Source of the DNA: Pseudorhodoplanes sp.
GTDB lineage: Bacteria; Pseudomonadota; Alphaproteobacteria; Rhizobiales; Xanthobacteraceae
Direction: 5' to 3'
Assembly: GCA_032027085.1 (NCBI GenBank)
Contig: JAVSMS010000001.1
Location: forward strand, 272,783 to 336,782
DNA: 64,000 nucleotides
Shown here: one piece after another, positions 58,007-62,442 of the stretch
How positions within the stretch are numbered: position 1 is the stretch's first letter
How the letters are laid out: every line of letters begins with the position of its first letter
Notes under the pieces: model-generated
Told to the model about the DNA's origin: nothing
The model's database searches: none
Seen by the model: the letters and a program-made list of their open reading frames with translations, nothing else
Translations under genes and position numbers: made by a program

Positions 58007-60187
58007 TCACTTGGTGTTGGCACGCTGCTGTGTTGATCGCCTTGCCCGGACCTTTTCAAGTCTGGCTTTCAGAATCGCGGGTTTCGATCCAGGCGCTTTG
58101 ATCTGCCGGTCGTATCTCTCCAGTACCGCCAATTCGTCCTCCTGCCTGTCGAGCTTCCGGTAAACTATGGCAAGCTGCTCATAGTACCAAGGGGCGACGC
58201 CGAAGCCGCTGCTTCGAGATTCGGTTTCTTGGCTTTCGATCTCCTCAAGAAGGAGACGAACGGCATCATCCAGCCTGCGCTCGCGTTTTGCGGCATTCAC
58301 CTGGTCGACCAGCAGCGAAATTCTGGAAGCCTCGGGTGTAAGACCGTTCAACGAGATGTTGCGTGTGTCGTCGTCCACCTCGTCCTCATCGGCGTCGGCC
58401 GTGGCACCGTCGGTCCCAAGCATCAGCTTGAAGTCGGTTTCTCCGATGATCCGTAAAGCGGCTCCTTCGCGGATGAGCTGCTCGGCACGGCGATGCTTGG
58501 CGCTCTGTTCCTCGCCAGCCAAGCGGCGCAGATCTTGATCGCCAACGACCAGGATGGAAGTTTCCTCCGTCACGCTGCCGGCAACCTCCATGCCGGCGGC
58601 AGCCGCCATATCCGCGGCCTCCGCACGCGTGATGGACAACTTACCGGTAAACACGACAACTTCACCCGAGAGCGGTCCATCAGGCCTGCCACTTCGGATC
58701 TGCCGGCCTCCGATTCCGGAGATCGGCGCCGTGACACGGTCGAGCCATTCGTCCAGCGGACAGCCCGTATCGGTTATAGCTCTCAGCACGATCATTCCAG
58801 CGGCTCGTGCATCCTCGCAGGCATCGTGATGCTCGAAATCAATTCCAAACGTGTCCGCCAGATTCTTGAGGCCATACCCACGTTTCGCAAAGCGTTCCCA
58901 CGCCCGCCGCGCAACGCGCGCGCTGTCGAGCCACCGGCATGATGGATCGGGAAGGCCGTATTTCTGTGCCGCGCGGCAGAGCGCCACGCGGTCAAAATGT
59001 GTGTGGTGAACGACCACGGCAGTCTGCAGTGCCGCGGCTACAACAGGCAGCGCCTCGCGCATCGTCGGCTTACCCGCAACGTCCTCTGGACGAATACCAT
59101 GGATGGAGATGTTGACCGGATCGAAATGATCCTCCGGGTCGATCAGGATCGTAAGCTTCCGGCTAATCTCGCCGCTCTTGAAGTGAACAAGGCCGATCGC
59201 ACAAATGCTTGCCATATCGGCATTCGCCGTCTCGACATCAACTGCAAGAAAATCGGCAGAGGCCAACTGCTGGGCTGCGAGGGCCTGACTGCTTGCGGCT
59301 TTCGCCCTCGCCTCCTCTATCGCCCGCACAAGTGCCGCGACAGCGAGCTGCTCCTGCTCTGAGTAGGTGCCGTCGGCTTTCACAAGAGCGGTGAGATGCG
59401 GCACGAGAAGATCGAGCGCTCCAGGATCGCGCTCAAGCCGGGAGAGGCAAGACTCCATCGATTGCTCCGATGGATAGAGCGTATCGGCGTAGGCGGCGAC
59501 GTCAGCACTCACCTCGTCGCTCGGAGTTAGCCCGGCGCGCTGAAATACTGCCCCGATGTATTTCGTAACGACGTCCCGCTCCGCGGCAGGCAAGACATCG
59601 CCGTCGGATCGGGCCAGATAGAGAAGGACCGCCAGACCGTCACGGCAAAGAAGTTTGGGATTTACCTTTGCTGCGGCACGCGCCTCGGTAGGAAGCTTCG
59701 GCAGATAGGTGCGCAAGAAGGTGGTTGGATCAGCGACACTCGTCCACGCTGGAGGAAGCATCAGCTTCAGCATGCGATCACTGCGGAATGTTCGCCAGTC
59801 TTTGCGGAGAAGGCACCAACCTTCCAGATAAAAAAACTCTCCGCCGCCCGGACTTACGCGTCCGGCAATGACACGCCGCGCCGATACCTCGCCAGAGGCG
59901 TTGGCATATTCCAATCCCAAGGCCACGCCTTCGATTTCATCTGGCAGACCATCGCTGTTGTCGTCACGAAAGATGCACTGCTGCTCCTCGACAGCATCCT
60001 CTGCTGGCCCACCCTCGACAATGTTGAGGCGCGGAGGCGTTCGTGCCTCGCGGCCCCGGAACCAGCTGAGCAGTGACACCGCTCCCCCTCTCCAACGAAG
60101 CATCCGCCCCCTGGCGGCTCTCGCAGGCGCCGCCAGAACTTGCGGGATCGTGATGGAGTTGCATGATGCCCCTGCGACAACCCACAC
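58007..60187 (-). CDS. multidomain protein: WYL-like domain, TerB-like domain, DEDDh 3'-5' exonuclease, BRCT domain, helical C-terminal tail
   Basis: - WYL-like: SARRVIAGRVS...FYLEGWCLLRKDWRTFRSDRMLKL.
- TerB-like: LAVLLYLARSDGDVLPAAERDVV and LVKADGTYSEQEQLAV.
- Exonuclease: FLAVDVETAN...SIHGI...HHDACEDARA.
- BRCT: GEVVVFTGKLSITRAEAADMAAAAGMEVAGSVTEETSILVVGD.

The first ~30 codons look non-coding, so the true start may be MLRWRGG at about 60103. Confidence 0.75.
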   Translation of the reverse strand: MWVVAGASCNSITIPQVLAAPARAARGRMLRWRGGAVSLLSWFRGREARTPPRLNIVEGGPAEDAVEEQQCIFRDDNSDGLPDEIEGVALGLEYANASGEVSARRVIAGRVSPGGGEFFYLEGWCLLRKDWRTFRSDRMLKLMLPPAWTSVADPTTFLRTYLPKLPTEARAAAKVNPKLLCRDGLAVLLYLARSDGDVLPAAERDVVTKYIGAVFQRAGLTPSDEVSADVAAYADTLYPSEQSMESCLSRLERDPGALDLLVPHLTALVKADGTYSEQEQLAVAALVRAIEEARAKAASSQALAAQQLASADFLAVDVETANADMASICAIGLVHFKSGEISRKLTILIDPEDHFDPVNISIHGIRPEDVAGKPTMREALPVVAAALQTAVVVHHTHFDRVALCRAAQKYGLPDPSCRWLDSARVARRAWERFAKRGYGLKNLADTFGIDFEHHDACEDARAAGMIVLRAITDTGCPLDEWLDRVTAPISGIGGRQIRSGRPDGPLSGEVVVFTGKLSITRAEAADMAAAAGMEVAGSVTEETSILVVGDQDLRRLAGEEQSAKHRRAEQLIREGAALRIIGETDFKLMLGTDGATADADEDEVDDDTRNISLNGLTPEASRISLLVDQVNAAKRERRLDDAVRLLLEEIESQETESRSSGFGVAPWYYEQLAIVYRKLDRQEDELAVLERYDRQIKAPGSKPAILKARLEKVRARRSTQQRANTK

Positions 60188-60210
60188 GCAAGCAGTCGCT
60201 TCGCTGGCTG

Positions 60211-60714
60211 CTATTTCAAGCAGCCGGCCGCTTGCTCTTTCGCGCCGAACGGGACCGGAGAGGCGTCCGAGGGGGCGTCACGGCCACGACACCGAACTTC
60301 GATCTTCTCCCCGGCTGCTCTGATCGACGGCGACAACATCCACGCCGGATTATGGGGTGGCCCGTACGCCGACCAGGTCAGCATGCATACCCGCTCCTCC
60401 CAATGTGCCAGAGTTGATGGAGGCGCTTCGTTTATATCCGGGAAGTAGCGGACGGTGCCGTCCTCGTATGTTTCAGAACCCAATGGATTGAAATAGGTGC
60501 CCCAAGGGCTCGGGCCATTTCTACCGGGGCTGAGGCCAAACGACATGATCTCGATCCCAGCCCCCAGGTTTGCTTCGCCTACAGGCTCTTGCAGAGCTGC
60601 TCTCGCGTTGGCGAGCGCAGAATGAACCTCCACCTCTGCAAAAGGGGTGGAGCGGCCTTCAAAATCCTGGACAACCGCCTCAATGGTGGCGGGAATATCA
60701 AATTCTTCGGTCAT
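60211..60714 (-). CDS. hypothetical protein
   Basis: 167-aa ORF lying between the DUF4411 gene and the 726-aa gene on the same strand. The N-terminal ~110 aa look protein-like, but the C-terminal ~50 aa are compositionally odd, which suggests possible truncation or a frameshift. Confidence 0.35.
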   Translation of the reverse strand: MTEEFDIPATIEAVVQDFEGRSTPFAEVEVHSALANARAALQEPVGEANLGAGIEIMSFGLSPGRNGPSPWGTYFNPLGSETYEDGTVRYFPDINEAPPSTLAHWEERVCMLTWSAYGPPHNPAWMLSPSIRAAGEKIEVRCRGRDAPSDASPVPFGAKEQAAGCLK

Positions 60715-61234: not shown

Positions 61235-61245
61235 GAGCGTCTACC

Positions 61246-62442
61246 TCACGCCGGCACGCCAAAGGCGAGGCGTTCAATGGGAGGAACGTACTTGGCCTGG
61301 ACGCCCAAATAGCCAGACACCGCACTAAGGGTAAGCTGATTGTTATGGTAGCCCTGCAAGACCAGCCGCGCGAACCCGCGACCGATATAGCCGAGGACCT
61401 GCTGCCGATACGGTGCAAAGCCGCTCGGCGCTTCCTCTATCTCTTCCTCTCGCTGCCGCGCATATTCGGCACGCTTGCCCTGGTAGAACGCATTGGTCAC
61501 TTGGCGAAGTTCGACCAACCGCACGAGCAAGGCTTCCCGGCTAACGCCATATCGACGCGCAAGGGATTCAATTTCCTCGTCGCTCCATAGGGAGCGAAGC
61601 GGCGTCTTCGCGCGGACAACGGCTTCGGCCAGCAAATCGTCTCTGGGCATCAAGGATGCCGCAGCAACCTGGTTGCAAAACCGTTCCATCGCCCGAACCG
61701 GCGCCGGCAGCGTGTCGCCCGGCTCAACGGTGTTTTCAATCACGCTCTGGCCGAGAATGATGTGCCCGAGTTCATGCAGGAGCGTGAAGATACGCCCGCC
61801 GCTGCGATCCTTGCCGTTGACCACAATCATCGGCAGCGGCTGGTCGGCAATGGCGAAGCCACGCATCTCCTCGATATCAATCTGATGGTGCGCGCCGCCA
61901 ATCACCGACACCAAGACGCCGGCGCCCTCGATCGCATCGCGCCAAGCTCTAAAAGCCTTACTGGTATCGCCCCATCGGCTCTGCCGTGCCAACGTAATAC
62001 CCAACCGCTCGCGAATACGCATGCCAATGACTTCGGCGTTGTCGTTCACGCCCGCGGTTAGTCCTAAAGCATCGGGCTGCTCACCGAGGGTTTCCAACAC
62101 TTCGAGCGCCACCAAGCGCCGCTCGTGAGCTGCGCGGACTTCATAAGCAAGCTCGCTGCTGAACCTGCCCGCACGCGCAGCCGCAAGCCGGCGGAAATCC
62201 CGCAACGCTTGGAAGCCCTGCGGCGGCTCCGGCAAATAGAATACGCTCAACGGACGCTTACATTTCTTGGCAATCTTGCGAAGTTGCGCGATGGACGGCT
62301 TGTCTTCGTCAGATTCCCACGCCTGTACACGCTCAACTGCCACGCCGATGCCCTCCGCCAGCTCCTCTTGGCTCAAGGAGGCGGTCTCTCGGGCCCAAAC
62401 CAGCATCGCCGGTTCGACTAGGGCTTTAATGCGTCCAGACAT
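61246..62442 (-). CDS. XRE HTH / ImmA-IrrE zinc metallopeptidase fusion protein
   Basis: 398 aa. N-terminal HTH (LSQEELAEGIGVAVERVQAWESDEDKPSIAQLRKIAK) and a central HELGHIILG metallopeptidase motif. Confidence 0.8.
   Translation of the reverse strand: MSGRIKALVEPAMLVWARETASLSQEELAEGIGVAVERVQAWESDEDKPSIAQLRKIAKKCKRPLSVFYLPEPPQGFQALRDFRRLAAARAGRFSSELAYEVRAAHERRLVALEVLETLGEQPDALGLTAGVNDNAEVIGMRIRERLGITLARQSRWGDTSKAFRAWRDAIEGAGVLVSVIGGAHHQIDIEEMRGFAIADQPLPMIVVNGKDRSGGRIFTLLHELGHIILGQSVIENTVEPGDTLPAPVRAMERFCNQVAAASLMPRDDLLAEAVVRAKTPLRSLWSDEEIESLARRYGVSREALLVRLVELRQVTNAFYQGKRAEYARQREEEIEEAPSGFAPYRQQVLGYIGRGFARLVLQGYHNNQLTLSAVSGYLGVQAKYVPPIERLAFGVPA

Follow-up and report, generated by a model that had tools for sequence, protein, structure and literature searches.

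RmrA-type antitoxins, which join a helix-turn-helix (HTH) domain to an M78 metallopeptidase with an HExxH motif, have been described with varied toxins, PIN-like proteins included, and some of these pairs have been validated in defense (PMC10440598). A DUF4411.1 gene downstream of a fused HTH-DUF955 gene has already been described as a toxin-antitoxin (TA)-like system (Matelska et al., 2017; PMC5499597), DUF4209 is a HEPN family (C6orf70-like) linked to restriction-modification (R-M) operons (PMC3710099), and the WYL domains of CapW, DriD, and PafBC bind single-stranded DNA (ssDNA) (PMC11662680). Relatives of these proteins meet in a cluster of four co-directional open reading frames (ORFs), tentatively referred to as A, B, C, and D, in Pseudorhodoplanes sp. 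(assembly GCA_032027085.1, contig JAVSMS010000001.1, positions 272,783 to 336,782). Below, "the window" means this whole stretch of 64,000 nucleotides (nt), and positions are counted from its first letter. Judged from sequence comparison, the four genes appear to be a mosaic of three independent units (A with B; the remnant C; D) and not one system. On balance, we favor the view that they form a mosaic island in which D is an autonomous sensor-nuclease involved in conflict, although we hold any specific mechanism of its activation with clearly less confidence.

The Cluster and Its Units

The cluster consists of the following features.

61246–62442, minus strand: gene A, 398 amino acids (aa), XRE-type HTH (Pfam HTH_3, 6e-12) and ImmA/IrrE (M78) metallopeptidase (Pfam Peptidase_M78, 3e-16) with an intact HELGH
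60770–61234, minus strand: gene B, 154 aa, TTG start, DUF4411 PIN-like nuclease (Pfam DUF4411, 8.8e-39; weak PIN), 11 nt after A
60211–60714, minus strand: ORF C, 167 codons, degraded 5' remnant (about one quarter) of a DUF7380-DUF4209 (HEPN) gene of about 600 aa
60080–60210, minus strand: non-coding spacer between C and D, 131 nt, ending in a Shine-Dalgarno-like GGAGAGGGGGAG before GTG 60079
58007–60079, minus strand: gene D, 690 aa, WYL-TerB-DEDDh-BRCT-TPR-like (58007–60187 as the longest ORF)

An earlier reading of the sequence by a model (the original prediction) had proposed four co-directional minus-strand genes, and all four ORFs are present where it placed them. Two of its three intergenic gaps, 11 and 55 nt, are correct, and the third, given as 23 nt, is the spacer of 131 nt. 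It had further proposed a single four-gene system headed by a CapH/CapP-like regulator: the HTH-ImmA fusion, as a single-chain analog of CapH plus CapP, would repress the operon and, after a proteolytic trigger, derepress the DUF4411 gene, the 167-codon ORF, and the exonuclease together. Several features speak for such a system. The ORFs run in one direction and are separated by short gaps, scans between them detected neither a terminator nor a promoter, A matches the PADLOC models of both capP (1.7e-15) and capH (3.8e-4), and an HTH and M78 pair lies directly upstream of a gene related to D in some prophages, such as IPP44. The comparative data given below contradict it, in that A and B recur alone, D travels alone, and C is probably a pseudogene.

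The A and B Pair

Fourteen PADLOC RmrA models match gene A, the best of them at 7.6e-20 over residues 9–350, which is nearly its full length, whereas the capP match covers the protease part only; A is therefore fitted better, and over a greater length, by RmrA than by capP. Its homologs at E ≤ 1e-10 number 785, all of about 400 aa. In gene B, the acidic residues D6, E15/E16, D99, E116, and D130 are invariant across five homologs.

A DUF4411 gene lies directly downstream of the A homolog in seven of eight loci, which represent three distinct contexts, and the gap between the two is 9–14 nt in L092, L093, L094–L096, L097, and L098. The flanks of the cassette differ (LTXXQ/ComA genes; an integrase with MmeI/type I R-M genes; dnaK/grpE), and no C- or D-like gene stands beside it in any context examined, which argues against a four-gene system. 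We consider A and B a probable conserved, self-contained two-gene TA cassette of the RosmerTA or HTH-DUF955-PIN type, and as such a new member of a described class, with A a predicted RmrA-type antitoxin or regulator and B its presumed toxin partner.

This pair has two features in common with RosmerTA, namely the RmrA architecture of A (HTH and M78 with HExxH) and an adjacent partner gene inherited together with it, and differs in that B falls outside the recognized RmrT families. Because of this lack of an RmrT profile match, we refer to the pair as RosmerTA-class and not as a listed RosmerTA subtype. Gene B also corresponds to the DUF4411.1 component of the "three-component" HTH-DUF955 (COG2856) TA system of Matelska et al., in that it encodes DUF4411 as its only domain, retains the conserved acidic residues of PIN, and follows a gene in which HTH and DUF955 are fused. 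No toxicity or defense assay of any member with a DUF4411 toxin was found in accessible papers. By analogy, A would repress the promoter of its own pair and neutralize B, and would release B once the protease or sensor part of A is triggered.

Although A contains the domain families of both CapH and CapP, and a separate CapP-like M78 gene lies near a SAVED gene elsewhere in the window, the two domains are here fused, and the A family travels only with DUF4411 and not with a multi-gene defense operon. In a CapH/CapP-type arrangement, the HTH and M78 genes are conserved with the operon that they regulate; the homologs of D lack them. Protease-gated derepression of the whole cluster is thus not supported, as A homologs are conserved with DUF4411 alone.

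A Gene Remnant

The 167-aa ORF had been listed as an unknown gene, together with the suspicion that 60211–60714 might be degraded, and the suspicion proved right. ORF C has no match in Pfam, PADLOC, or NCBIfam, and a word-index search for homologs returned ORF C itself and no close homolog. An exhaustive phmmer search of 1.8 billion representatives, however, aligned its residues 1 to about 110 or 150 with the N-termini of proteins of 590–620 aa that carry DUF7380 and DUF4209, at 35–48% identity over those 110–150 residues. In tblastn comparisons, the similarity decays after residue 112 or so and the conserved LKARYADLVWD motif is destroyed, and none of the remaining 450 or so residues, including the HEPN/DUF4209 part, is found anywhere in the window. 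Set beside the DUF7380-DUF4209 HEPN proteins, ORF C has thus lost about 75% of the length, and with it the HEPN domain and the RNxxxH motif of that domain (full-length relatives show RNxxAHG). ORF C is therefore probably a pseudogene, the dead 5' stump of a DUF7380-DUF4209 gene, and as a truncated gene it is an unlikely component of a four-gene system.

Domain Architecture of Gene D

The original prediction gave D 726 aa, which is simply the longest possible ORF. All homologs begin with MSLL(D/S)WFRGR, and in the database the protein encoded here is 690 aa long, as obtained from GTG 60079. An ATG at 60103, suggested as the true start, is ruled out by the homologs' N-termini and by GGAGAGGGGGAG just upstream of GTG 60079. 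From N- to C-terminus, D contains the following modules.

59762–59920, minus strand: WYL domain, residues ~54–106, signature WRTFRSDRM (Pfam WYL, 3.4e-7; PADLOC WYL, 1.3e-8)
59318–59635, minus strand: TerB domain, residues ~149–254, an all-helical bundle
58799–59245, minus strand: DEDDh (DnaQ-like) 3'-5' exonuclease, residues ~279–427 (Pfam RNase_T, 2e-15)
58415–58681, minus strand: BRCT domain, residues ~467–555 (Pfam BRCT, 9.5e-5; 23.0 bits, cut-off 21.3)
58010–58342, minus strand: TPR-like helical module, residues ~580–690, motif GVAPWYYEQLAIVYRK

The exonuclease domain possesses the three Exo motifs of DEDDh enzymes with their D-E-D-D-H residues: across 59 homologs, D281, E283, D363, and D423 do not vary, and the conservation of H418 is 90% or higher. 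In Foldseek searches, the domain matches the ExoX-DNA complex 4fzx (template modeling score 0.82), the exonuclease domain of DinG, Pol III epsilon, and PolC, and its closest fold matches are all DNA exonucleases. C-terminal to it, the BRCT domain has conserved T478-G479 and K528, matches the C-terminal LigA region in NCBIfam (4e-7), and in Foldseek matches the BRCT domain of RFC1 as well as LigA.

At the N-terminal side, the WYL region (residues 52–108) forms a five-strand barrel in an AlphaFold2 model and matches the WYL region of PafBC (9fnd_Y) in Foldseek at 36% identity over 81 columns. The TerB domain scores 21.3 bits in Pfam when the whole of D is searched, under the cut-off of 24.4, and 25.4 bits as an isolated domain; TerB was matched in nine of nine homologs of D (best 2e-6), the model shows helices at 141–274, and a profile search of the PDB with this region gave nothing significant (best E 1.2). 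The TPR-like module consists of five helices modeled with a predicted local distance difference test (pLDDT) value above 90. TPR_14 matches all 11 members compared and TPR_12 nine of them (best 1e-5), and a profile search of the PDB returned the TPR of kinesin light chain (0.0026). Searches of D with Pfam, NCBIfam, and PADLOC detected no HTH. Residues 1–50 are mostly coil in the model and of low confidence.

The domains named for A, B, and D (HTH and M78; DUF4411; WYL, TerB, DEDDh, and BRCT) are thus all present, and the four-domain description of D was incomplete only in missing the TPR-like fifth module. We consider D to be a probable catalytically intact, ExoX/DnaQ-like DNA 3'-5' exonuclease with four accessory modules, as predicted from its sequence and model.

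The accessory domains also occur in described systems of different construction. PafBC, DriD, CapW, and BrxR have the same WYL fold and signature motif as D, but they are transcription factors in which a winged HTH (wHTH) is followed by WYL and WCX, whereas D has no HTH and its WYL is joined to an enzyme through TerB; the comparison with CapW and BrxR made in the original prediction therefore holds for the domain and not for the wHTH regulator architecture. Likewise, the helical TerB domain is common to D, Shango SngA, and the Ter cluster, but no Sng or other TerB-system model of PADLOC matches D and no helicase or ATPase partner is adjacent, so that the link to Shango is one of shared domain family only.

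Relatives of Gene D

Among 5.8 billion proteins, WYL combined with the exonuclease occurs only in P0001–P0012, about a dozen clusters at 90% identity, and no further WYL-TerB-Exo example was found in 185,579 species genomes or in JGI metagenomes. Members of this family come with or without BRCT and with or without TPR. A metagenome scan for the WYL-TerB module returned only the known P0006 gene and two unrelated WYL regulators, and thus gave no evidence that this sensor is reused with other effectors. The earlier claim of an undescribed domain combination stands, now with five domains: no description of the architecture (BRCT, DEDDh, WYL, TerB, or prophage DnaQ) was found in open-access full text, PADLOC, or NCBIfam. 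A single paper mentions BRCT, anti-phage, and exonuclease together, and it is irrelevant here.

Residues ~276–555 of D are 50–64% identical to a short Exo-BRCT protein of about 290 aa, with catalytic and BRCT signature residues in common. At least 495 species genomes, of many phyla, encode this core. Besides the short form, there is an Exo-BRCT-TPR form of about 420 aa, and a permuted form in Bradyrhizobium (P0024, P0035; locus L089) in which a Cys-rich N-terminus (CTICG...C) and an APWYYEQ TPR-like module precede Exo-BRCT. The TPR-like module is therefore absent, present, or moved to the N-terminus among relatives, and the permuted architecture indicates that it is an independently shuffled unit.

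The short form is known as a PRK06195-like DEDDh-BRCT protein, annotated "DNA polymerase III subunit epsilon" or "exonuclease domain-containing protein," to which D adds WYL and TerB N-terminally and the TPR-like module C-terminally. Against the NCBIfam model PRK06195, D scores 168.7 bits, whereas the equivalog cut-off is 373, and it is not an equivalog. D was also compared with PDC-S48, a candidate single-gene system in PADLOC. Their N-terminal DEDDh domain is common to D (3.2e-24), but D aligns only to positions 5–172 of 411 or 14–187 of 512, as do eight relatives, and the remainder is unrelated. D as a PDC-S48 was ruled out, since the exonuclease domain alone matches; no publication mentioning PDC-S48 was found in open-access full text.

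Genomic Contexts of the Multi-Domain Form

Genes neighboring the relatives of D in loci from GTDB genomes were called by a simple longest-ORF routine. The ParB-methylase/recombinase element that adjoins D in the window is missing from the islands that hold the closest homologs of D (88% and 71% identity). In L001, whose homolog is 88% identical as a protein, the order is an integrase, an OLD-family nuclease, a KTSC protein, D, AbiEi/AbiEii, an M78-UvrD-PDDEXK protein, and BilD, while in L003 D stands among Wadjet JetABCD, HipBA, an SbcCD-like pair, and AAA_13. The 86% DNA identity of D to L001 and L002 covers 58039–60099 only, so that the shared DNA stops at the borders of D. Other extended forms, with TPR and/or WYL-TerB, are found beside Ymh-HEPN (L087), HEPN_AbiU2 (L088), Fic, a Gp49/HI1420 TA pair, and transposases (L089), and DUF4011 and a transposase (L099).

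Two of these loci are compact, with D next to other DNA-end enzymes. At L001:7685–11925, the OLD-family ATPase-nuclease, a 70-aa KTSC protein, and D are tightly packed, with gaps of at most 21 nt, and at L003:10001–17343 so are D, a 66-aa ORF, and the SbcD-like and SbcC-like genes.

A different setting is provided by a metagenomic contig (L102:554–6853), in which a ParB-methylase, DUF5681, DUF3489, DUF2924, and a serine recombinase precede a WYL-TerB-Exo-TPR homolog on which the recombinase is convergent. This contig is syntenic with 51–60 kb of the window at gene identities of 57–68% (D 57%, the recombinase facing D 62%, methylase 58%), and the similarity of these values suggests long co-inheritance of D with this type of element. 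The element in L102 has the D homolog without A or B, and as the homolog is flanked by divergent and convergent genes, it is monocistronic there.

Whether the large protein travels with DUF4411/ImmA genes had been proposed as a check. When A, B, and C were compared by tblastn with 86 loci encoding relatives of D, neither B nor C had a match, and the sole match of A was a weak M78-like one of 24% identity, 4 kb downstream in L013. In this sample, the DUF4411/ImmA pair therefore never co-occurs with D. D appears to be autonomous, because the DNA similarity stops at the gene edges, the L102 homolog is monocistronic, and DUF4411 is missing from the 86 loci; these same facts are hard to reconcile with a four-gene system.

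Genomic Contexts of the Exo-BRCT Core

Among 83 genome loci of the short core, about 50 have no conserved neighbor. In 13 of them (L015, L023, L025, L028, L035, L047–L049, L057, L059, L073, L074, and L077) the Exo-BRCT gene lies immediately downstream of ligA, usually with a gap of a few nucleotides. This adjacency, together with the BRCT of D being most similar to that of LigA, suggests a nick-processing partnership for that branch.

In 17 of the 83 loci, a conserved protein of about 125 aa adjoins the short Exo-BRCT gene, directly upstream in 16 (L011, L014, L034, L037, L040, L041, L047, L049, L053, L056, L064, L066, L070–L072, and L075) and downstream in one (L068). Its consensus reads ...WKGEDKGLIACWEVG...LPVLAWKGG...YLAQWQGLRGEDL...TCSKTG.... 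Neither Pfam nor PADLOC matches this protein, and the genes upstream of the core in phages are unrelated to it. It may form a two-gene module with the short Exo-BRCT protein.

The full Exo-BRCT core is also carried in 27 phage records. Among its carriers are prophages of pneumococci, staphylococci, S. suis, and Moraxella, and in temperate phages and satellites that are unrelated to one another (hosts Streptococcus, Staphylococcus, and Moraxella) the core gene directly follows the lysogeny repressor and has the orientation of the integrase, as in these examples.

IPP44 (L103): HTH, M78 peptidase, exonuclease, integrase
Javan542 (L104): HTH, exonuclease, a small opposite-strand gene before the integrase
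Mcat9 (L105): HTH-S24 repressor, exonuclease
phi2958PVL (L106): repressor, exonuclease, gp04, an opposite-strand gene before the integrase
Javan549 (L108): CI, exonuclease, a PemK-like gene, integrase

The repressor-proximal position is typical for prophage-encoded exclusion genes. The HTH and M78 pair of IPP44 is the phage's own ImmR/ImmA-type lysogeny switch, and in other phages it is replaced by CI or S24, so that the recurring partner of Exo-BRCT is the lysogeny repressor and not ImmA. The annotation of the phage proteins varies between "DNA ligase," "DinG helicase," and "exonuclease."

The Element and Its Cargo

Gene D is preceded in the window by the genes of an integrated element, of which a second, related copy lies at 1752–10470.

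51275–52645, plus strand: ParB-N/DNA-methylase
52975–54501, plus strand: large terminase, followed by DUF3489 and DUF2924 (plus strand)
56231–57826, plus strand: large serine recombinase 2 (Pfam Resolvase, 3e-39, plus Recombinase), convergent on gene D
8683–10470: recombinase 1, a related large serine recombinase
62585–62645, minus strand: tRNA-like fragment (Rfam tRNA, 28.1 bits against a gathering score of 29; E 0.011), about 140 nt upstream of gene A

Both copies, 1752–10470 and 51275–57826, are made up of ParB-methylase, terminase, (DUF3489/DUF2924), and serine recombinase genes. Recombinases 1 and 2 share 70% protein identity, and 8133–9882 and 55501–57274 are 76.7% identical in nucleotides. 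The terminase of the first copy is split over three ORFs (3592–4359, 4274–4993, and 5248–6000), so that this copy looks at least partly decayed.

The earlier proposal of two recombinases with two cargo slots is borne out. Behind recombinase 1 are a PD-(D/E)XK/RNase H protein, a SAVED-domain protein, and an M78 peptidase, so that both elements have defense-type cargo behind the recombinase. The 57%-identical homolog in L102, at the equivalent position and convergent on the serine recombinase of a syntenic element, lends the cargo-slot idea further support. Three genes around the first element look like cargo too: a PD-(D/E)XK and RNase_H_2 protein at 10460–11941 that overlaps the stop of recombinase 1, a DUF4268 protein at 6025–7086 near recombinase 1, and a Tle1-like phospholipase (4.8e-84) at 17951–19183 that adjoins the M78 peptidase gene.

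The content of guanine plus cytosine (GC) is 54–60% in 50–62.6 kb, compared with 62–66% in the chromosomal-looking parts of the window, and climbs from 0.58 to 0.655 beyond 63 kb. This rise and the tRNA-like fragment point to an island end some 150 nt upstream of gene A, and the fragment may be a remnant attachment site or an island border. ARAGORN called no tRNA at 62585–62645, and the fragment has no second copy within the window. Repeat searches around the cluster found no att-like repeats, scans for promoters and terminators gave no more than expected from shuffled sequence, and a megablast search of 57900–62700 against plasmids returned no match. The region can be described as a small defense-type island, with three unrelated units at the cargo end of an integrated ParB-methylase/terminase/serine-recombinase element.

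Possible Function of Gene D

What the comparisons show are the identities of the domains, the catalytic residues of D being intact, the three units being independent of one another, and the settings of D in defense islands and as element cargo. For D itself we infer a substrate, an activation signal, and a defensive role: most likely it is mobile-element cargo that degrades invading or replicating foreign DNA. WYL and TerB would gate the nuclease, with WYL sensing ssDNA as in PafBC, DriD, and CapW, and D would stay inactive until they bind ssDNA or a related ligand arising from phage replication or DNA injury. LigA/RFC1-type BRCT domains bind DNA that is nicked or carries a 5' phosphate. That of D would place the enzyme at nicks or 5'-phosphorylated ends, from which activated D would resect DNA in the 3'-5' direction, and the TPR-like tail would mediate self-association or oligomerization, or the binding of a partner or an invader protein. 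A bolder proposal, which we put forward as tentative, is that D represents a new single-gene anti-phage system in which WYL, on sensing ssDNA, would itself license an exonuclease anchored at nicks or ends, without a transcription factor in between, and more broadly that the Exo-BRCT family is an unrecognized, widespread class of mobile-element-encoded immunity genes.

Several observations weigh against the mosaic island with a conflict-related sensor-nuclease, or against parts of it. The association of the multi-domain form with defense islands comprises about seven independent contexts and is qualitative. The short Exo-BRCT genes beside ligA point to repair for that branch. PADLOC contains no full-length model for D, and no experiment on any D-type or Exo-BRCT protein was found in the open-access literature. 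While the domains of D are well defined (mean pLDDT 85.8), the predicted template modeling score of 0.52 leaves their relative orientation uncertain. Neither the 131-nt spacer nor the other gaps between the genes showed a promoter or terminator, and D may be co-transcribed with A, B, and C. As for the pair, B has no PADLOC match at E ≤ 0.1 and hence matches no RmrT model; RmrT toxins being heterogeneous, this weakens the RosmerTA label but not the analogy.

The main alternative, which we regard as rather unlikely, is that D is a DNA repair or maintenance exonuclease that is recruited by WYL to ssDNA and trims 3' ends or flaps at nicks, carried on islands since it helps the host or the element to cope with DNA damage. 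The widespread 290-aa relative and its position next to ligA would fit such a role, as would the nearest NCBIfam models ("DNA polymerase III subunit epsilon" PRK06195 and the LigA BRCT region), the DNA-damage sensing of the WYL proteins PafBC and DriD, and the SbcCD-like pair adjoining D in L003. The multi-domain genes, however, are rare and patchy, move as single-gene cassettes, and occur in variable islands by TA, Abi, Wadjet, and OLD genes and not in conserved repair loci. Their short relatives also fill the repressor-proximal slot of prophages and satellites and in most genome loci lack a conserved neighbor. Homologs in a housekeeping or repair setting, which the original prediction had named as evidence against itself, thus make up part of the 290-aa core and none of the multi-domain relatives. 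These two forms also differ in where they reside: the short one beside ligA or the 125-aa partner or in lysogeny operons, the long one in defense islands.

Another explanation is that D serves the mobile element, either by processing element DNA ends in excision, replication, or packaging, or as a counter-defense that removes ssDNA or 3'-ended signals which trigger host WYL-type regulators or other immune sensors. D homologs do occupy the recombinase-adjacent slot of two elements, whose core genes have diverged about as much as D, and many temperate phages and satellites have an Exo-BRCT gene within their lysogeny module. We nevertheless think this improbable: the islands that hold the closest homologs of D lack this element, no D-like gene follows recombinase 1 in the sister element of the window, and the recombinase-adjacent slot is otherwise filled by defense genes, as with SAVED and the cyclic oligonucleotide-based antiphage signaling system (CBASS). 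Finally, one four-gene system under A is highly improbable, the comparative data having already largely refuted it.

Implications

The annotation of this locus can be corrected in that A and B are probably a TA pair of known type and the 167-codon ORF probably a pseudogene, which leaves D alone as being of further interest. D appears to be a rare elaboration of the widespread, uncharacterized Exo-BRCT core, which is routinely mis-annotated as "DNA ligase" or "DinG helicase," for example in S. aureus Panton-Valentine leukocidin (PVL) phages and in pneumococcal prophages. If D is defensive, it would be the first example found of a WYL sensor wired directly to a nuclease effector instead of a transcription factor, and also a case in which bacterial immunity uses a BRCT domain for targeting. 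A defensive D would also give a function to the large "Pol III epsilon-like" Exo-BRCT family in the prophages of major pathogens.

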